From the sequence record OR515477.1: 64,000 nt of DNA; one strand, written 5' to 3'. The DNA comes from Escherichia phage Es2. Shown here piece by piece: positions 9,114 to 34,480 of this stretch (position 1 is its first letter; every line of letters starts with the position of its first letter). The notes under the pieces were generated by a model. The model worked only from the letters and a program-made list of their open reading frames with translations. It made no database searches and was not told the DNA's origin. A program made the position numbers and the translations under genes.

Positions 9114-9156
9114 GATTGACACTAAGTCAGCTTACTAGCAAAAGCAAATAATGACA

Positions 9157-9193
9157 AAGCCCAGCCTGCACTTTTGCGACTGGGCTATTTTTA
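9157..9193 (+). terminator. intrinsic terminator
   Basis: Hairpin GCCCAG...CTGGGC followed by T-run. Confidence 0.6.
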
Positions 9194-9207
9194 TAATAAA
9201 ATTTTAG

Positions 9208-9236
9208 TTGCTTAGATGCCCAAACTTTTGTATAAT
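9208..9236 (+). promoter_or_regulatory. early-type sigma70 promoter
   Basis: TTGCTT - 17 bp - TGTATAAT, RBS AAGAGGA. Confidence 0.7.
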
Positions 9237-9267
9237 ATGTTTATAGATTGAGGCAAGAGGATTAAAT

Positions 9268-9966
9268 ATGAGGATTATTTCTAAGTTCGCCGATGTGTAT
9301 GATTTGCAGAACAGTTTGTTTGACCCAGATCGTGTGTGGGAACGTAAAACTGAGGAGTTACTGGTTAAAGTAACCGATGATGCAGAAAAGAACATTGTGC
9401 ATACTCGCCAGGTATTTCGTGATGGTTCGCTATCTTTCCGTGGTGATTTCGAATACTTTGTAAACCCACTATTTGTTGCAGGTGAAGTTTACTGGTTACA
9501 CGAGCTGTACTGCTGGCATCCAGCATTTAGCTTCAAAACGTTCAACCTCGACACTATGTTCGATAAAATGGAAGAGATGGGATTGCATGCTCGCTCTTAC
9601 TTAATGGATAAGAGTCGCGGAGATGTTCGTGAAACAATGCGTGATTTGCTCGCTGAAGCAAAACCTAAAGCAGAACGTATCTTATCCGAACTGCGTGTAC
9701 CGATTGCATATGTGAAAGGTATTAAGAAGAACGATAACGATGATGTTCGTAACTTCGTGATTCAGACTAACATTCGTTTCCATCAGTCAGGTATTCCGTG
9801 GCAGGAAATTGAAAGTAACTTATACCGTTTACACCAAGTTCTCGAACAGTATATCTTCGGTGTACTAGGAACTGGTGAGCCTGATATGATTAAAGTATCA
9901 GATAAAGACAGGTTAGCAGCGCATGGATTTGATACAAAAACTTCTTTCAGGAATATGGCAAGGTAA
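9268..9966 (+). CDS. hypothetical early protein
   Basis: Track ORF 232 aa. Confidence 0.65.
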   Translation: MRIISKFADVYDLQNSLFDPDRVWERKTEELLVKVTDDAEKNIVHTRQVFRDGSLSFRGDFEYFVNPLFVAGEVYWLHELYCWHPAFSFKTFNLDTMFDKMEEMGLHARSYLMDKSRGDVRETMRDLLAEAKPKAERILSELRVPIAYVKGIKKNDNDDVRNFVIQTNIRFHQSGIPWQEIESNLYRLHQVLEQYIFGVLGTGEPDMIKVSDKDRLAAHGFDTKTSFRNMAR

Positions 9967-10372
9967 GTGGTATATCCTGGGAGCAGGTCTAGCGATAGGC
10001 ATCGGGTTCGGTGCTTATCACTTAGTAGATAAAGTGGAGACTTTAGCGGGAGATCTTGCGGTAGCTACTAAAAAGATCTCTTCTCTAGAAACTTCCCTTA
10101 ATAAGGTGAAAGCTGAGAGCGAACTTCGGGAGACTCGAATGAACCAGTATTTCACAATGAATAATATTTCGCAAGCAGATCTAGACAAAAAGATTAAGCA
10201 GCTAGATAAAGCTCTTAGTCGTCAAGATATTATAGCTGCAAAGCCTGGATTGGTAACATTAATAGCTAAAAAGCAGAGTAGAGAGTTCGAGGAAAGATTA
10301 GCATGTTTAACTGGAAACTTGGAATACTGCTCGCAGCCGCAATCACAATCACAGGCTGTGCAGAAGAAATAA
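9923..10372 (+). CDS. hypothetical membrane-anchored coiled-coil protein
   Basis: Track ORF 149 aa; N-terminal TM helix; start uncertain (overlaps upstream ORF). Confidence 0.5.
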   Translation: MDLIQKLLSGIWQGKWYILGAGLAIGIGFGAYHLVDKVETLAGDLAVATKKISSLETSLNKVKAESELRETRMNQYFTMNNISQADLDKKIKQLDKALSRQDIIAAKPGLVTLIAKKQSREFEERLACLTGNLEYCSQPQSQSQAVQKK

Positions 10373-10656
10373 AACCAGAGCCTTCTCATGAGTTAAAGCA
10401 AGCTCATGTAGACTGGCCTAAAGGACTTCAACCTTGTAGCTTTGACTTTAAGTTTGAAAAGAAATTAGCTACAAATGGGGAAGATGGCGTAGTAGTTGTT
10501 GTACCATATAAAGATTGGAATGCAAAAGCAAAATGTGAGGAAGCAGTTTACTCTTACATTTCACGACTGACTGGTATGGTTTGCTTCTATCGCCAAGATT
10601 TACAAGAAAAACGTTGCTTAGTTTACTATCCACCAATTAACAATAGGAAAGATTAA
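10303..10656 (+). CDS. putative lipoprotein
   Basis: Track ORF 117 aa; signal peptide ending in lipobox-like ITGC. Confidence 0.5.
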   Translation: MFNWKLGILLAAAITITGCAEEIKPEPSHELKQAHVDWPKGLQPCSFDFKFEKKLATNGEDGVVVVVPYKDWNAKAKCEEAVYSYISRLTGMVCFYRQDLQEKRCLVYYPPINNRKD

Positions 10657-12062: not shown

Positions 12063-12123
12063 TCTAAAATTCTTCTTGACAACGACAAAATTTTATGCTC
12101 CAGAAGTGATCTTTAAAAACACA

Positions 12124-12176: not shown

Positions 12177-12833
12177 TTGGAAAAGTTCTTACAATTATTA
12201 ACGGTACTGCTCCAAGAAGCGAAAGATCCAGCATCGCTTCTTAAACGTCTGCTAACTATCTTAGTTGCTGTCATTATTTTCTTATTTGTTAGTAATACTA
12301 GCGAGGTGATGTCATTCTTAAAGACTTTCTCCACGTCTGCGGTTCTACAGGATGTTCAAACTCAAAGGATAGATAACTTTCCTAATGTAGCTAGAGAAAA
12401 AAGCATGGTACTCTTTTCTCAAACGGGTGCGGATGCTGTTTTTGTCGTCAAGTATAAACCCGATGCCATTAATGATTATTCTAACATTATTGCATGGGAA
12501 AGCAATGCGCAATTAGATAGGGCTGACTTGGCCGATAAAGCGGTAAATAAAACGTCTGAGCTATATAGACGTCACTTGGAAGGCTTTAACTACGCATCGG
12601 ATTTAAGTGTAAAAGTAAATAAATACATGGGGTTAGATATACCTGCGTTTAAGAACGTTACTTTTAATTACATATACACTTGTCCATATTTCAATCTAAA
12701 CAATATCTATGCTGGATATATTGGTATTGCTTGGAAAGATAATCCTGTAGATGCAGCCGATTCTGAGAAATTTAACGAGTATTTAACAAAGCTCTGTTCC
12801 CCACAACAGAGATCTTTAGGTAGATCAATATGA
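12177..12833 (+). CDS. hol: holin (putative), TTG start
   Basis: 218 aa; TM segment near N-terminus; directly upstream of endolysin; GAGGAGG RBS before TTG. Confidence 0.6.
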   Translation: MEKFLQLLTVLLQEAKDPASLLKRLLTILVAVIIFLFVSNTSEVMSFLKTFSTSAVLQDVQTQRIDNFPNVAREKSMVLFSQTGADAVFVVKYKPDAINDYSNIIAWESNAQLDRADLADKAVNKTSELYRRHLEGFNYASDLSVKVNKYMGLDIPAFKNVTFNYIYTCPYFNLNNIYAGYIGIAWKDNPVDAADSEKFNEYLTKLCSPQQRSLGRSI

Positions 12834-13243
12834 GTTTTAAATTTGGTAAAAATAGTGAAAAACAATTAGCTACCGTTAAGCCAGAGCTACAAAAAGTAGC
12901 TCGTAGAGCTTTAGAATTATCTCCATATGATTTCACGATCGTACAGGGTATTCGTACAGTAGCACAAAGTGCCCAGAATATTGCTAATGGTACTTCATTT
13001 TTAAAAGATCCTAGTAAAAGCAAGCATATTACTGGGGATGCCCTTGATTTTGCTCCATATATTAATGGCAAAATTGATTGGAATGATTTAGAAGCATTTT
13101 GGGCAGTTAAAAAGGCTTTTGAACAAGCAGGTAAAGAACTAGGCATTAAACTTCGTTTTGGTGCTGATTGGAATGCTTCGGGAGACTATCACGATGAAAT
13201 AAAACGTGGTACCTATGATGGCGGTCATGTCGAACTAGTTTAA
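12830..13243 (+). CDS. lys: endolysin, L-alanyl-D-glutamate peptidase type
   Basis: 137 aa; H..D..H zinc-peptidase-like motif positions (HITGDALDF, DGGHVE); size matches my recollection of T5 Lys. Confidence 0.75.
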   Translation: MSFKFGKNSEKQLATVKPELQKVARRALELSPYDFTIVQGIRTVAQSAQNIANGTSFLKDPSKSKHITGDALDFAPYINGKIDWNDLEAFWAVKKAFEQAGKELGIKLRFGADWNASGDYHDEIKRGTYDGGHVELV

Positions 13244-20691: not shown

Positions 20692-20876
20692 TGGAAACAC
20701 TTTTTCTTTTAATGCTCGTAGGTTCGTTAGTAGTTATATTAGCACTCCTATTAATCTGTAATATTCTTAATAATAAGAATTTAGGACTAAAGTGTGAGAA
20801 CCAAATCCTTAATCGTGAACTTGAGCAATATAACCTAGCAGCCCATAAACTATTAGACAAACTGGAGAATAAATAA
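20691..20876 (+). CDS. hypothetical membrane protein
   Basis: Track ORF 61 aa, N-terminal TM helix. Confidence 0.5.
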   Translation: METLFLLMLVGSLVVILALLLICNILNNKNLGLKCENQILNRELEQYNLAAHKLLDKLENK

Positions 20877-21475
20877 TGTTCACACAACAACCTATTCAAG
20901 TAGTACCAGACCATGAACTGAACACATGGGATTATAGCTTTAAAGATTTAACTGCTACTGTACAATTCAAATCTATGAAGCTAACATTTGCACACACTGA
21001 CCTTAGAGCATGTAAAGATCTTGAAGGTAAGCTAGAAGATGCTCGTAAGATTTTTGGCAAGGCTCGCATCCCGGCTGATAACCTGATTAATGCACTGATC
21101 GATGCAGGATACAAACTCGTGAAGGCTGAGGTTAACCGTCCTAGTACTCCAGTGACTATTAGAGATCCGTGGCAATCAGGGCCAATCGCAATGCTAAATA
21201 AATCATCGGATTTGCACAATGTTCCATGTGGCGGTACGCTGTCGTCTAATCAATCCTATCGAGTTGGGGAAGATTATGGGCCTTCTATACAGTTGAAACA
21301 TACTCAAGAAGCTCTTGAGTCTGACATGAAAAGCGTAGCACCGGGGAACTCTGGAGTTTCTAGGAATTCTGTCTATACTGTTCATTTAAACAATCCTGGT
21401 AATCATGGAAGTTTAGAGGATGCTATTATGGAGGCGTTGGGAGCTGTCATTAATGAAGATAAGAGAGGTAATTAA
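20876..21475 (+). CDS. hypothetical early protein
   Basis: Track ORF 199 aa. Confidence 0.6.
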   Translation: MFTQQPIQVVPDHELNTWDYSFKDLTATVQFKSMKLTFAHTDLRACKDLEGKLEDARKIFGKARIPADNLINALIDAGYKLVKAEVNRPSTPVTIRDPWQSGPIAMLNKSSDLHNVPCGGTLSSNQSYRVGEDYGPSIQLKHTQEALESDMKSVAPGNSGVSRNSVYTVHLNNPGNHGSLEDAIMEALGAVINEDKRGN

Positions 21476-21822: not shown

Positions 21823-22532
21823 TTAAAGAAGCCGAAAAATTAAAACGTCTCATCCAGCTAGCGCGGGGTGCTACACAAAAGAGTCTTTCCCAGCTAACTA
21901 ATGAAGAAAAATATGCAGTAATGTTTTTAGGAGATCATTATCCTGCTAGGTGGGATAAAGGTAAGATCAAGTATGATCGTGATGCAAAACAAGTTGTTTG
22001 GTCAGGCTCATATGTAGAAGTGAATAAAGCATTAAAGGCTTTAGATCCTGAAGCAAAAGGTTTCTCTTCTAATGCTATTCATATTCTAATTGATGAAGAT
22101 CTCCCAAGATTTAAGGAAGCATCATTTAAAGAAGCATTAGCTAGTGAAGATCTTATTCCTTTTAAACACGGTAAGTATGCACATCTTCCACCACTAGAAA
22201 AAGAGAAACCTACTCTAGTTAAAGATGAAGTTTATCGTGGGATTGGCACAATGCTAGCGAGTTTGACTGTAGCTCTCCATAAAGATCTAGAGTTAACGCC
22301 CCTAGAAAACGCTGTGCATTTCATGTGCCATAAGTACGAGGATACATTTAAAGAGCTATGTAAGTCGCTAGGAATGCCAAGTTACACGATATTAAACTAT
22401 GCTCCTGAATATACTAGAGCAGCTCGTGGAACTATGGATTACGATGATACAGGATCCACTGCTTCCTATTTAGCAACTTATATCTACTTCGCATCCTTAG
22501 GTATCAAACTCAAATCCAAGAAGGAGGAATAA
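21819..22532 (+). CDS. hypothetical early protein
   Basis: Track ORF 237 aa; last coding gene before the repeat region. Confidence 0.6.
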   Translation: MIKEAEKLKRLIQLARGATQKSLSQLTNEEKYAVMFLGDHYPARWDKGKIKYDRDAKQVVWSGSYVEVNKALKALDPEAKGFSSNAIHILIDEDLPRFKEASFKEALASEDLIPFKHGKYAHLPPLEKEKPTLVKDEVYRGIGTMLASLTVALHKDLELTPLENAVHFMCHKYEDTFKELCKSLGMPSYTILNYAPEYTRAARGTMDYDDTGSTASYLATYIYFASLGIKLKSKKEE

Positions 22533-22549
22533 AAGTTAACAAAAAGTTC

Positions 22550-22579
22550 TTGCATTCTCATACCCAAACATGTTATAAT
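22550..22579 (+). promoter_or_regulatory. sigma70-like promoter firing into the non-coding repeat region
   Basis: TTGCAT - 18 bp - TATAAT; no ORF downstream. Confidence 0.45.
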
Positions 22580-22918
22580 AATCTCATAGATTAACAACTA
22601 CTCTAGTTGATTAACTCTAGGGGCGATGATTATTACACGAATGTCTCGTATAGCTTGCGGCCTAGCAACAGCGGTATGACGGCATGAGTACTCACGTAAT
22701 TAATCACGCGCCCACAGGAGAGACTCTCATGAAATTGGGGGTCTCTTTTTCTTTATATTATTTAAATATTTTTAATGGCAATATCTGTGTTCAAGATGAT
22801 ACACCTGTTGCCGCTCATCTGCTAGGATGGCACAACACTTTCTTCTAGACTCCTAAGTTTCTAGGAATAGTTGAGCACTAACTCTAGAGTTTACATTAAA
22901 CTTTAAATCTGTTTCTCT

Positions 22919-23075
22919 AGTCAACTCAGGCGGTTTTCATATTCCTAGAAACTCTAGCAATAGGCGGTTAATACAGGGCGGTTTTAGGGAGGGCGGTTAT
23001 TTCTAGAAGACATTTTTTGAAAACACATTTCTAGAAATTACTGTCGTATTTGCACACTGCATTTCTAGAAATTTA
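22919..23075. repeat. GGCGGTT direct repeats and ATTTCTAGAAAT palindromic 12-mers
   Basis: Four GGCGGTT(T/A) copies between 22919 and 23000; TTTCTAGAA(A/G) palindromes at about 23010, 23030 and 23062. Confidence 0.7.
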
Positions 23076-23643
23076 TGGTCGGATTTGCACAAACGCCTAA
23101 GTTTTTAGGAACATATAATCTCTTGAAAATGGCAGCATTATTTCGGGCCGAAGGCCCGTGATTGCCTGAGTTTTTAGAGCCACAAGAATTTTCACTTGTC
23201 AAGCTATTTTGCCCCATTTAGCAAATAAAATTTTACTTTATCTCCTCTAATCTCAAATTAACCCAAATCTTCTCAACTCTTCCCCAAAATACCCGCAAAT
23301 CAGGTGCTCCGCACCAAACATGCGCCTCTCCCACAGTTCCCCCAAAATTTCTCTCGCTCTCTCAACTTCTCCCCAAACATACACAATCACACACCCTCCA
23401 ATCGAAGCCACAAAAATCTTGTCGGATTCGCACATCTTAATCCTAGAAAAACCGTGTCGGATTTGCACATACCCCACAGGATTCGAACGCAGTTCGAGAT
23501 TGCTGGAGTTTTTAGGAAAATTCATTGTCGGATTCGCACACTATAAAAATTTTTCGGGTCGGATTTGCACACTACCAAAAATTGTCGGATTCGCACATAC
23601 ACGCCCGCACGTAACACCCGTGGAGCAATGTCGGATTTGCACA
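23042..23643 (+). repeat. eight direct copies of 15-bp motif (T/G)GTCGGATT(T/C)GCACA
   Basis: Copies at 23042, 23077, 23420, 23455, 23525, 23556, 23582 and 23629, all in the same orientation. Confidence 0.85.
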
Positions 23644-23667
23644 AAAGCGCAGGGCAATTGCCCTGCG
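23644..23667. repeat. perfect 24-bp palindrome AGCGCAGGGCAATTGCCCTGCGCT
   Basis: Read directly; centred on CAATTG, immediately after the last 15-bp repeat. Confidence 0.85.
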
Positions 23668-23880
23668 CTAAATGAGAATAAAAATAAGAATCATTCTCAT
23701 TTAGAAAGCGGAATGAGAATGATAATAATTCGCATTTAGAAAGCGAAATGAGAATCAATCTCATTTAAGAACGGAAACGAAAATTATTCAGGAAGTGAAA
23801 CGATTCTCATTTAGAAAGTGGAATGATTCTCATTTAGAAAGTGGAATGCAAATGATAATGATTCGCATTTAAGAATGGAA
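23668..23880. repeat. degenerate repeat family TCATTTAGAAAG(C/T)GGAATGA(T/G)
   Basis: At least six related copies with internal dyads (GAATGATTCTCATTC-like); a further copy at 24207-24232. Confidence 0.7.
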
Positions 23881-24012
23881 GTGAGAAACACTGTTATTTA
23901 AGTTATCCACAGACTTATCAACAGCACGATTTGACTTGACAAAATTCTAGCCATTTTGAGGCGTTATCAACAGACTTATCAACAGCTTATCCTACTGTAT
24001 AAATATACAGTA
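23880..24012. repeat. inverted-repeat arm L with DnaA-box-like 9-mers
   Basis: TTATCCACA at 23903 and TTATCAACA at 23915, 23964 and 23976; palindrome CTGTATAAATATACAG; reverse-complementary to 27111-27245. Confidence 0.8.
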
Positions 24013-24378
24013 TTCCTATGCAGTGAATAATTCTAATATACAGCTAAAACGCTCTCAAACGCATTCTAACGCGTTTAATTTTGGTGGGGATACTAAAACA
24101 CGGGCAAAATTGGAGGAGGCTTAGAAATTAGTTAGCTCGCTAACGATCACACAAGGCGACACGTAACATCCTAACCATTAGCAGGCTAACCATCGCGGGC
24201 GCGGTCAAATGAGAATGATTCTCATTTGAGAATTGGGGGCACTTCCTGATAGTTGCGCCCCGTGATTATTACAGTAGTGGGCAACCTTTACGCTTTGCCC
24301 ATTCCCGCCACTCATCTTGATGTCTAGACTTGCGACGGCGTACTAAAAACCATTTATACCAGTGATTAAACCATCGTT

Positions 24379-24582
24379 TCATAAATCCTCCTCCGGTAGT
24401 CGGTGCGTGATTTTTTCCTCCTCTCCGTAGGAATCCACTAAATGCTGATAATAACCATCGTGATCATAAATCACTTTATCATATTCGCCACGCTCGACCG
24501 CTTGTCGGTTTTCCGGCGTATCTGGCACGTAAAAAACATCAACCATTGTACTGATTTTGGTTACAACAATTTTATTGCTCAT
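24379..24582 (-). CDS. hypothetical small acidic protein
   Basis: Track ORF 67 aa; about 15 Asp/Glu against 7 Lys/Arg; last gene of the leftward operon. Confidence 0.55.
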   Translation of the reverse strand: MSNKIVVTKISTMVDVFYVPDTPENRQAVERGEYDKVIYDHDGYYQHLVDSYGEEEKITHRLPEEDL

Positions 24583-24607
24583 AATAACGCTCCGTTATTA
24601 TATAATC

Positions 24608-24952
24608 TCATTGTGCCACCTTTCGAAACGCTGTTTCAATACTTTCCGCAGTTGACTGAATATACGCGCCTTTCATGATCAGGCGCTCAGTGCATACCTT
24701 ACGGAAGATATTAATAAAATCATCTTCATTTTCTGCAATTAACGCTTCACCCATAACCTGAACGTCACAAGATGCAAAGGTCAAAAATTGAAACGCTAGT
24801 TCACGGGCAACGACCTCATTGATTTTATAATGCGCCTTGCCCTCATAAATATTAATAACGCCCTTATATGTTGGGGAAAGCTGATTTAAATAATTTGCTA
24901 ATAATGCTGGGCGGCAATTAGCAATAAAACGATTGCCTTCATAAATAACCAT
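24608..24952 (-). CDS. hypothetical protein
   Basis: Track ORF 24608..24967 trimmed to MVIYEG start with GGGAGG RBS. Confidence 0.55.
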   Translation of the reverse strand: MVIYEGNRFIANCRPALLANYLNQLSPTYKGVINIYEGKAHYKINEVVARELAFQFLTFASCDVQVMGEALIAENEDDFINIFRKVCTERLIMKGAYIQSTAESIETAFRKVAQ

Positions 24953-29225: not shown

Positions 29226-29633
29226 ATGACTAACGCAAAAACCGCAAAATTCGCATGGAATGAAGAAAACACCCAAAAAGCTGTTACCATGTACCAGCAG
29301 TTAATCAACGAAAACGGTTTAGATTTCGCAAATAGTGACGGGCTGAAAGAGATTGCAAAAGCAGTAGGCGCGGCTTCTCCCGTATCCGTTCGCTCAAAAT
29401 TGACCAGTGCAAAAGCCTACCAGAAAAGCGATAAGCCGCGTAAAGTTGGCGGCGGCAGTTCTGTACGCAAAGCGCATTATGTGCGTGTTATTGCTAAACA
29501 TGCCATTGATTCCGGCATTATCAAAGACGCTGACGATCTGGCATCACTGGAAAGTGCAAAACTTGAAACGCTGGACGCGGTAGCGCAATTGCTAGGCGTT
29601 GCCGATGAAGTGAAACAAGCCGCAGGCGAATAA
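29226..29633 (+). CDS. A2: A2-like pre-early protein (putative DNA-binding)
   Basis: 135 aa; position immediately upstream of the A1-like gene; assignment by synteny and size only. Confidence 0.5.
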   Translation: MTNAKTAKFAWNEENTQKAVTMYQQLINENGLDFANSDGLKEIAKAVGAASPVSVRSKLTSAKAYQKSDKPRKVGGGSSVRKAHYVRVIAKHAIDSGIIKDADDLASLESAKLETLDAVAQLLGVADEVKQAAGE

Positions 29634-32505: not shown

Positions 32506-33240
32506 ATGAGTCAAGTTAAAACGAATATTACCCGCTCTTTCCCGCATATTTCCCGCGTTATGATTTGGGATCTGGACGGCACTATCATTAATTCTTTCCA
32601 TCGTGTAGCGCCTTGTTTTGATAGCGAGGGCAATTTAGATTTAAATAAATATAAAAATGAAGCCTGCAAACATCATTTAATAATGCAGGATTCATTATTG
32701 CCATTAGTTGAATATATGCGCCAGTGTATGAATGACGCTAACACGTTAAACATTATTTGCACCGCTCGACTGATGAGCAAGTCAGATTATTATTTCTTGC
32801 GTAAACAAGGATTGCGGGGGCGTGGAAATAGCAATATCCGCGTGTTTTCCCGCGATACCCTGCACAAATACTTTAAAGCTGATAAAGTTAGCGAGATATA
32901 CCACAGTAAGGACGCAGTTTATAAATCTTATTATTTTGAATTATTTAAACAATTATATCCGAACGCTGATTTTACAATGATTGATGATCATAAAGGCGTG
33001 TTAGCGGCGGCGGCATCATACGGATTTAAAACGCTGGACGCACAAGCCGTTAACGATATTCTATCAATCGGTGTTACATTGATTGGTGAAACCTTTATTG
33101 ATGAATCGCTCGACGATGATAATGATTATCAGTTCCTAGCAGACCGCCTGCAATTATGTTGGGAAGGTATGACCGAGGAAGAACGCGCAGAATATAGTTG
33201 CAGTCCTCAACAGTACATCGAGAAATTAAAAGTTGCATAA
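32506..33240 (+). CDS. dmp: 5'-deoxyribonucleotidase, HAD family
   Basis: 244 aa; HAD motif I IWDLDGTIINS; size and position match my recollection of T5 dmp. Confidence 0.75.
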   Translation: MSQVKTNITRSFPHISRVMIWDLDGTIINSFHRVAPCFDSEGNLDLNKYKNEACKHHLIMQDSLLPLVEYMRQCMNDANTLNIICTARLMSKSDYYFLRKQGLRGRGNSNIRVFSRDTLHKYFKADKVSEIYHSKDAVYKSYYFELFKQLYPNADFTMIDDHKGVLAAAASYGFKTLDAQAVNDILSIGVTLIGETFIDESLDDDNDYQFLADRLQLCWEGMTEEERAEYSCSPQQYIEKLKVA

Positions 33241-33397
33241 TAATTAAAGTTGAAATAGTCACGGTGTGTAATGATAACATGCCGTGACTATTAGTCTGCT
33301 AAGTACCGGGCGGTAATGAGACTCATTCTCATCTGGTGGGCCACTGGACACACCTCCATGTGTAATCTTATGAAATTTGGCAAAAAGGTAATTAGCG

Positions 33398-34289: not shown

Positions 34290-34480
34290 TAAATCCACCC
34301 CGCCATAGCTGCTAACCAAAAACCTACGAAAATAAAGAATAGGATAGTTCCGAACCCAAAACTATTTATCCAGCTATCATATACCTCTCCACGTCTGCTC
34401 TTTCTTTTGTTTGACATATCTTTCATGCTCCTATAAATGTGATTTTTGAAATATTCTATAATTTGTGCACAACCGACCAT
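34289..34480 (-). CDS. hypothetical membrane protein
   Basis: Track ORF 63 aa; C-terminal hydrophobic segment. Confidence 0.5.
   Translation of the reverse strand: MVGCAQIIEYFKNHIYRSMKDMSNKRKSRRGEVYDSWINSFGFGTILFFIFVGFWLAAMAGWI

Follow-up and report, generated by a model that had tools for sequence, protein, structure and literature searches.

The direct repeat D array of T5-like phages as a possible docking site for the pre-early protein A2

Introduction

How phage T5 stops and restarts the injection of its DNA has been an open question since the 1960s. According to the literature, the T5 protein A2 is a DNA-binding dimer, and second-step transfer requires both A2 and A1. A 2023 paper on BF23 called the stop signal and the mechanism of A2 unknown, as did a 2026 PNAS paper and a T5 preprint of the same year, and a 2026 review describes the origin of T5-type terminal repeats as poorly understood.

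Among the catalogued elements of T5 is direct repeat D (DRD) of 'Repeat Region 3' (GenBank AY587007; Heusterspreute 1987; Wang 2005; Davison 2015, 2020). AY587007 annotates DRD copies 1-9 at 9672-10409, following "palindrome J" and the "major single-stranded nick 1, 7.9%", and ends the left terminal repeat at 10139; copy 10 is placed at 12073 and copies 11-12 at 79019-79048. In a second curated record, AY543070, positions 9140-10149 are annotated as "injection stop signal". The Davison 2020 preprint counts "nine DRD repeats" as a conserved feature of "Repeat Region 3" without assigning a function to them, and proposes the DnaA boxes as the stop signal. Up to 2026, no function has been assigned to DRD in the literature. 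Here, we describe the corresponding array in a 64,000-nucleotide stretch of DNA from Escherichia phage Es2 (OR515477.1), referred to as the window, and compare it across the T5-like phages.

The repeat array and its genomic setting

Positions 22700-24300 of the window match 457 phage records in megablast searches, with up to 93% identity, and these are essentially all T5-like phages of Salmonella, Escherichia and Klebsiella. Comparison with the T5 genome by blastn shows that the + strand of the window is the reverse complement of canonical T5 and that the terminal repeat is collapsed in the window to one copy, which lies between the early and late genes. Position 23177 aligns with T5 121752, the last base of the genome, which equals 10139 in the left repeat. 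The features of the region are as follows.

21204..21218, + strand: distal degenerate DRD copy in the ORF019 homolog, equal to T5 'DRD copy 10'
22532: end of the last early ORF
About 22548-22755: promoter- and terminator-bounded unit without an ORF
Before 23042, + strand: GGCGGTT and TTCTAGAA repeats
23042..23056, + strand: DRD copy outside the terminal repeat, TGTCGTATTTGCACA, homolog of T5 DRD8 (T5 10260-10274)
23077..23091, + strand: DRD copy outside the terminal repeat, homolog of T5 DRD7
Between the 23077 DRD copy and the inferred right end at 23177: GC hairpin
23177..23215: inferred right genome end (boundary 23177) and terminal element GAGCCACAAGAATTTTCACTTGTCAAGCTATTTTGCCCC, common to My1 and Klebsiella-phage termini
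23177..33350, - strand: collapsed terminal repeat of ~10.2 kb, the first-step-transfer DNA, with boundaries from alignment
23240..23410, + strand: C-rich, G-poor tract with copies of T5 'direct repeat A', dividing outer from inner DRD
23420..23434, + strand: DRD copy inside the terminal repeat, homolog of T5 DRD6
23455..23469, + strand: DRD copy, homolog of T5 DRD5
23526..23540, + strand: DRD copy, homolog of T5 DRD4
23557..23571, + strand: DRD copy, homolog of T5 DRD3
23583..23597, + strand: DRD copy, homolog of T5 DRD2
23629..23643, + strand: DRD copy, homolog of T5 DRD1, a few bases from the nick-type palindrome
23646..23669: palindrome AGCGCAGGGCAATTGCCCTGCGCT (T5 palJ), bearing the nick-type CCCTGCGC on the minus strand (T5 nick 1, 7.9%)
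23670..23880: Fur-box-like palindromic repeats (T5 DRC/DRE, palE-I)
23903..23984, + strand: two pairs of DnaA or DnaA-like boxes, TTATCCACA-gac-TTATCAACA and TTATCAACA-gac-TTATCAACA
Beyond the DnaA-type boxes, + strand: pre-early genes
29226..29633, + strand: gene A2 (135 aa), proposed repeat reader, with a predicted Myb/GcrA-like helix-turn-helix
36714..37196, + strand: small terminase subunit gene (T5 'sciB'), rival candidate reader

A pattern search of the window finds eight + strand copies of KGTCGGATTYGCACA between 23042 and 23643. An earlier reading made from the sequence alone (the sequence-only reading) had listed the same eight near-identical, same-strand copies; five of its start positions were correct, and those it gave as 23525, 23556 and 23582 were each one base low. 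Its consensus describes seven copies, all of them exact matches to KGTCGGATTYGCACA, and the copy at 23042 deviates by one mismatch. Allowing up to two mismatches, the whole 64-kb window contains 10 matches, against 0.18 (sd 0.41) expected from dinucleotide-preserving shuffles, none of which reached 10 in 100 trials. One of the additional matches is the degenerate same-strand copy at 21204 (CATCGGATTTGCACA) within the ORF at 20876-21475, which recurs at the equivalent place in most Tequintavirus and Epseptimavirus loci with sequence reaching that far; the other is a weak minus-strand match at 34464, probably due to chance. The motif is not spread over the genome, with these 10 matches in 64 kb and 17 exact copies of its 12-bp core in T5.

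The start-to-start distances of the eight copies (35, 343, 35, 71, 31, 26 and 46 bp) are irregular, as the sequence-only reading had also noted, and the repeats of related phages are irregularly spaced too. Because the copies are distributed over all three reading frames, the repetition exists at the level of DNA and not of an encoded peptide. The non-coding setting claimed by that reading likewise holds, as neither curated T5 record (AY587007, AY543070) has a CDS in the homologous region, and a coding repeat was rejected on both grounds. The lengths of stop-free stretches over the array region differ between relatives (93 to 200 aa) and are a consequence of the G-poor strand. When positions 22000-24700 were compared with Rfam, only sub-threshold chance matches were returned, and a structured RNA was rejected; no sigma-70-like or terminator-like site overlaps any copy.

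KGTCGGATTYGCACA is the reverse complement of T5 DRD, whose unit reads TGTGCRAATCCGACA on the canonical strand. Identical units are read from the T5 sequence at 9672-10409 in the same order and context, and the array region aligns collinearly with T5 10528-9242 by blastn. The two arrays agree in unit sequence, co-orientation and presence of multiple copies, and in their position beside palJ and nick 1, after the DnaA boxes and DRC, and across the end of the left terminal repeat. Since sequence, order and context coincide, this is a known and named element, the already annotated "direct repeat D" array of a T5-like phage. By position, its inner six copies are homologous to DNA within the 'iss' of AY543070 (9140-10149). 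This position beside the DnaA boxes supports the sequence-only reading in so far as it had named the T5 injection stop signal as one possible counterpart, but that reading missed the existing name and the fact that the array extends across the right genome end, where the terminal repeat has its boundary.

Several further features surround the array. The unit at 22548-22755 starts with a strong-looking promoter (TTGCAT-18-TATAAT) and closes with a hairpin and T-run terminator (22716-22749); the ~150 nt in between contain no convincing ORF and have no Rfam match, and the unit may represent a small RNA. A comparable promoter and hairpin stand at the corresponding place in Vibrio phage phi 3 (L006, 6745-6900). 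At 22930-23000, just outside the outer DRD copies, GGCGGTT occurs four times (AGGCGGTTTT, AGGCGGTTAA, GGGCGGTTTT and GGGCGGTTAT) beside three ATTTCTAGAAAT palindromes, and both elements are kept in T5. On the complement of 23240-23410, near the right genome end, repeated TTTTGGGG-like runs are reminiscent of telomeric repeats; equivalent tracts are found in Vibrio, Aeromonas-type and Proteus relatives. Fur-box-like matches (TGATAATNATTATCA, at most three mismatches) number 19 in the window against 9.5 expected. The Fur-like palindromes are concentrated in the interval from the nick site to the DnaA boxes (five matches plus one), and sites were noted at 23685-23867, 24210-24224, 33117-33131 and 33317-33331. 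A perfect Fur-like box lies within dmp and another ~20 bp inside the left repeat boundary; Aeromonas phages have better Fur-like boxes at the same place.

Conservation and polarity across the family

Conservation was measured over 27 distinct, aligned T5-like sequences by setting the 12 core columns of every copy against the remaining columns of the region. Core columns are 95% conserved versus 85% for the rest, and 53% of them are invariant versus 22% (Mann-Whitney p = 1e-10). The 12-bp core TCGGWTTYGCAC is kept in all three Demerecviridae subfamilies and forms co-oriented clusters at the same place in Klebsiella phages, Pectobacterium phage My1, DU_PP_V, Vibrio phage phi 3 and River4. My1 has six copies within its 12,854-bp repeat and three outside, and in phi 3 the repeat boundary falls inside an array of at least 12 copies. 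The core is also present in 39 of the 40 IMG/VR loci found via A2, the siteless one having less than 2 kb upstream of A2.

The polarity of the repeat is equally strict. Only one opposite-strand match was found in ~600 kb of IMG/VR loci, and all 17 exact cores of complete T5 are on one strand; except for those at 12074 and 79035, they lie in or adjoin the two terminal-repeat copies. A tandem pair of DRD cores with 15-bp spacing and the usual orientation is present at 79020-79048 of AY587007 (L105, 39019-39048). Annotated as DRD copies 11-12, the pair belongs to the coding sequence of exo2/D13, and major nick 4 is ~370 bp away.

In some lineages, the repeat differs. Aeromonas-type phages carry TCGAAT(A/T)(A/T)(C/G)TACTT in the same positions and architecture (an example is TCGAATTTCTACTT), and the repeat of one metagenomic relative reads TCGGWYTAGTACT. 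Proteus phage PM135 has degenerate copies only, and just the 3' half of the motif is left in lineage L110, despite a class-I-like A2. Contigs L106, L109 and L111 end before the repeat region and were left out of the repeat comparison. With conservation above that of the spacers, strict co-orientation and family-wide occurrence, the copies behave like sites that a single sequence-specific DNA-binding protein would recognise, in support of what the sequence-only reading had suggested; that they form a protein-binding array is proposed with high confidence.

The nick site and the genome ends

In every lineage examined where such a site was found, the last copy lies 2-4 bp from GGCGCAGG or GGCGCGGG, the nick-type site next to it being GCGCAGG. 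T5 nicks 2-4 share CC(C/-)(T)GCGC without an adjacent DRD, which indicates that nicking is independent of the repeat, and a dependence of the nick on DRD was rejected.

At the T5 major nicks 1-3, CCCTGCGC is accompanied by a second block, (G)GATTACG or ATTACATG, ~30 nt downstream (T5 9661-9668, 22250-22257 and 39660-39667 in L003; window 23600-23669). This two-block pattern suggests a bipartite nickase site, and at nick 1 the blocks enclose the DRD1 copy. A gene with the Pfam domain 'Phage_T5_Nicking_endo' is entered in contig gene tables between the large terminase and portal genes.

Wherever the genome ends of a lineage have been determined, the terminal repeat has its right end inside the array, typically with six copies inside the repeat and two to three outside. 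In loci sequenced as far as this physical end, the nearest inner copy is 244-246 bp away in T5 and eight other Tequintavirus-type genomes, 157 bp away in the genome of a Klebsiella phage and 38 bp away in the chee24 group, where the annotation may differ in method; over all lineages, the distance ranges from 38 to about 350 bp.

Both termini have their own conserved element nearer to the cut than any DRD. Inside the right end (window 23177-23215), T5, My1 and the Klebsiella phage share an element containing TTGACAAnTGAAAA, and just outside the left end (window 33351-33366), T5 and My1 share TTACACATGnnnGnG. No DRD copies are found at the left terminus. From their position and conservation, these two elements appear to be better candidates for terminase cut sites than DRD. 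The TTGACAAnTGAAAA element of the right end is also seen in PM135 and Aeromonas-type contigs.

A2 as the candidate reader of the repeats

A protein that reads the repeats could be encoded by the host or by the phage. A scan for core pairs no more than 30 bp apart, over 185,579 bacterial and archaeal genomes with one genome per species, gave 36 matches, none of them in Enterobacterales or Vibrio. Tandem repeats without relation to the array, in taxa that are not hosts, make up most of the 36; a contaminant contig of T5-like sequence gives one, and a motif pair that is conserved in Bacteroidales contigs, directly before a gene start, gives two. An array for a host factor was rejected in the absence of chromosomal arrays in Enterobacterales and Vibrio. 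Furthermore, DnaA boxes, Fur-like boxes and the nick site are constant over the family, whereas the repeat changes in some lineages. Together, the lack of host arrays and the contrast between constant host sites and a changing repeat indicate that the binder is probably phage-encoded.

The sequence-only reading had named small basic proteins from the adjacent module as binders. This does not hold, because the neighbouring early ORF occurs in three related IMG/VR loci and the motif is family-wide; the adjacent early ORFs were rejected for this poor conservation. A2, in contrast, is a hallmark protein of the family, present in 892 phage records. Its AlphaFold2 model (pLDDT 84) comprises an N-terminal three-helix domain, a disordered basic linker and a helical C-terminal domain. 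The N-terminal domain is predicted to be a Myb/GcrA-like helix-turn-helix, with residues 52-61 (VSVRSKLTSA) as the putative recognition helix.

A comparison of 130 A2 homologs shows strict coupling between helix 3 and a second block: VR(S/G/A)KL pairs with RK(A/E/I)H(Y/F)xR, and VRQKL mostly with an RQKK-type block. In the six lineages with repeats of the ...GCAC type, A2 always has VR(S/G)KL in helix 3 together with RK(A/E)HY(V/L)R. VRQKL-type A2 proteins are found with (G/C)TACT-type repeats in five loci from at least two lineages (AhSzq-1, L104, L107, L112 and L103); the second block of the Aeromonas-type proteins is RQKK-like (RQKKLVL, RMKKMLI) and that of L103 is TRKIEVV. PM135, with its degenerate repeats, has VRTKL and RKAHVVF. 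By these sequence comparisons, the repeat co-varies with the class of A2, as a clade-level correlation that perhaps reflects a single switch or two independent ones; the same clades also differ in further proteins and repeats.

The Aeromonas phages were also considered as a case of a terminase without A2, which failed because they encode a divergent A2. Late genes of Aeromonas-type Demerecviridae contain many in-frame TAG codons (3-8 in the small terminase, 12-14 in the large terminase and six in the portal gene), whereas the pre-early genes A1, A2 and dmp of the same phages have none; true stops are TAA or TGA. The loci concerned are L106 (5303-7793), L107 (10520-14066), L109 (9123-10873) and MG676224 (L090, about 12250-12850). 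This pattern looks like amber recoding limited to late genes, which would probably account for the fragmented GenBank annotation of AhSzq-1.

A proposed docking array for the restart of DNA transfer

These comparisons point, tentatively and at somewhat less than an even chance, to the DRD array as a set of docking sites for A2 that act at the restart of second-step transfer. We infer both that A2 is the binder and that its binding restarts transfer. The array would then consist of co-oriented recognition sites for a phage DNA-binding protein, most likely the essential pre-early A2, and each asymmetric 12-bp core TCGGWTTYGCAC would be read by one N-terminal Myb/GcrA-like helix-turn-helix domain. 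Through the flexible basic linker and the C-terminal helical domain, A2 dimers could bridge irregularly spaced sites, and a flexible linker between DNA-binding and dimerisation domains would tolerate the irregular spacings observed, from 13 to more than 80 bp. As the array begins a few bases past the 7.9% nick site and crosses the end of the terminal repeat, it would be the first DNA obliged to move once the first-step pause has ended and transfer goes on. A2 made from the injected DNA would join A1 at the membrane and dock on the array, and docked A2 would license or ratchet second-step transfer.

With still more reserve, the array can be proposed as the missing cis-acting partner of A2: a polar docking track that co-evolves with the recognition helix and on which A1/A2 would grip the paused DNA and restart its transfer. 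By bracketing the right end, the array might also couple injection polarity to the definition of the terminal repeat.

Several observations sit uneasily with a role of the array in A2 docking. If the pause is at ~9.6 kb, the estimate from blender shearing, the array is just distal to the pause point and maybe outside the cytoplasm, where A2 is not present, and an injection-only role fails to explain why the right end lies inside the array wherever ends are determined. L110 retains only the 3' half-site next to a class-I-like A2, and the T5 pair at 79020/79035 within a coding gene has no obvious role in injection. The co-variation, moreover, amounts to one or two clade-level switches that are accompanied by differences in other proteins and repeats.

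Packaging, injection stop and replication as alternatives

The position of the right end is more directly addressed if the array is a platform for the small terminase that positions the right-end cut and sets the direction of packaging, by analogy with lambda cosB and T7. This would fit with the right end lying between inner and outer DRD in T5, eight other Tequintavirus-type genomes, a Klebsiella phage and My1, and inside the array in phi 3, with the single orientation of all copies and with the poorly understood generation of T5-type long terminal repeats (2026 review). If the last DNA packaged is the first to leave, the inner copies would also be at the end that is packaged first. The small terminase, encoded upstream of the large terminase (T5 "sciB", PHROG 3802), nevertheless does not track the repeat. 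T5, My1 and phi 3 share the core, but helix 3 of the N-terminal helix-turn-helix of the terminase is wholly different among T5, My1 and Vibrio phages (PVAEIDAQLKK is among the T5/My1/phi 3 sequences), and its conserved GFRNRDR block is unchanged where the repeat has switched. In addition, TTGACAAnTGAAAA on the right and TTACACATGnnnGnG on the left are nearer to the cuts, the distance between repeat and end varies from 38 to about 350 bp, the left terminus has no DRD, and the extra T5 copies at 12 kb and 79 kb are far from the ends. Based on the terminase helix variation and the end-specific elements, packaging is ranked second and considered unlikely.

Less probable again is that the array is part of the injection stop signal, with a host or virion factor, bound to the repeats or to a nucleoprotein that these nucleate in the head or tail, blocking the DNA until A1 and A2 act. 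The inner six copies do lie within the 1-kb 'iss' of AY543070, directly beyond the 7.9% nick and the estimated shear point, and the array is kept in all lineages examined that have the A1/A2/dmp module. The non-coding region of ~1.2 kb may also correspond to the length of DNA that spans tail and envelope at the pause. However, host chromosomes have no arrays of the motif, and the motif varies between phage lineages in which the presumed host sites (DnaA, Fur-like) are constant. According to Davison, the receptor alone gives complete ejection in vitro, which argues against an intrinsic virion block, and the stop is credited to the inverted repeats of the DnaA boxes.

A function of the repeats as weak DnaA boxes, in which their 3' nine bases ATTTGCACA bind host DnaA and extend a membrane-tethering cluster, is very improbable. 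ATTTGCACA fits the relaxed consensus TTWTNCACA at 8/9 positions, some Vibrio-phage copies (TTTTGCACA) match it perfectly, and DnaA boxes are found 260 bp from the array. Half of the copies, however, have the C variant ATTCGCACA with a 7/9 match, the highest conservation reaches 5' of the 9-mer (TCGG), and the final A needed by DnaA is not kept outside T5-like phages, being C or T in Vibrio phages and My1. In Aeromonas-type phages, the motif becomes ...CTACTT while the true DnaA boxes remain TTATCCACA.

The sequence-only reading had also proposed iterons or a replication origin. That a phage initiator binds the repeats as origin iterons is hardly credible: direct repeats beside DnaA boxes and AT-rich DNA do resemble plasmid origins, but the spacing of 26-343 bp lacks helical phasing, the flanking ORFs are PHROGs of unknown function without initiator domains, the annotated origin-binding protein of T5 is encoded at 59.6 kb, T5 origins lie near the genome centre according to electron microscopy studies as relayed by Davison, and replication genes are silent while only first-step DNA is in the cell (Davison).

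Comparison with known systems

Docking of A2 remains the preferred reading of an element that was itself known. What the comparison adds is that DRD is a family-wide element of strict polarity with a fixed place at the nick site and genome end, that its sequence switches together with the predicted recognition helix of A2, and that it is separate from the terminase end-signals and the DnaA boxes. In this way, a catalogue entry is turned into a specific A2-binding hypothesis.

The closest described system is the T5 DRD array itself, with the same 15-bp sequence in the same orientation in a region that is 84-85% identical. Both genomes share the order of DnaA boxes, DRC palindromes, palJ/nick 1, DRD1-6, DRA, repeat end and DRD7-8. 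They differ in that Es2 has eight clustered copies and T5 nine, the DRD9 position being lost in Es2; in addition, the DRD8 homolog of Es2 has a G-to-T change, and two inner copies are 35 bp apart in Es2 and 25 bp in T5.

Like plasmid and phage iterons, the array consists of co-oriented direct repeats near DnaA boxes, but it has neither regular phasing nor a neighbouring initiator gene. In lambda cosB, the sites R1-R3, with R4 across cosN, are bound by gpNu1. The T5-like array resembles it in that several short asymmetric sites flank a terminase cut and most of them are on the side that is the first to be packaged; unlike cosB, the repeats of T5-like phages are not tracked by terminase specificity, stand at variable distances from the cut and have other conserved elements nearer to it. 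Phage T7 reportedly has short-repeat arrays, SRL and SRR, that flank its terminal repetition and whose function is unproven. In both phages, arrays of short direct repeats adjoin boundaries of direct terminal repeats, but those of T7 are on both sides of a 160-bp repeat and those of T5-like phages are confined to the right boundary of a repeat of 10 kb. Finally, A2 has no sequence homology to GcrA/Myb-type helix-turn-helix proteins, and GcrA follows another logic by reading methylated GANTC, whereas the A2 domain would read the asymmetric DRD core.
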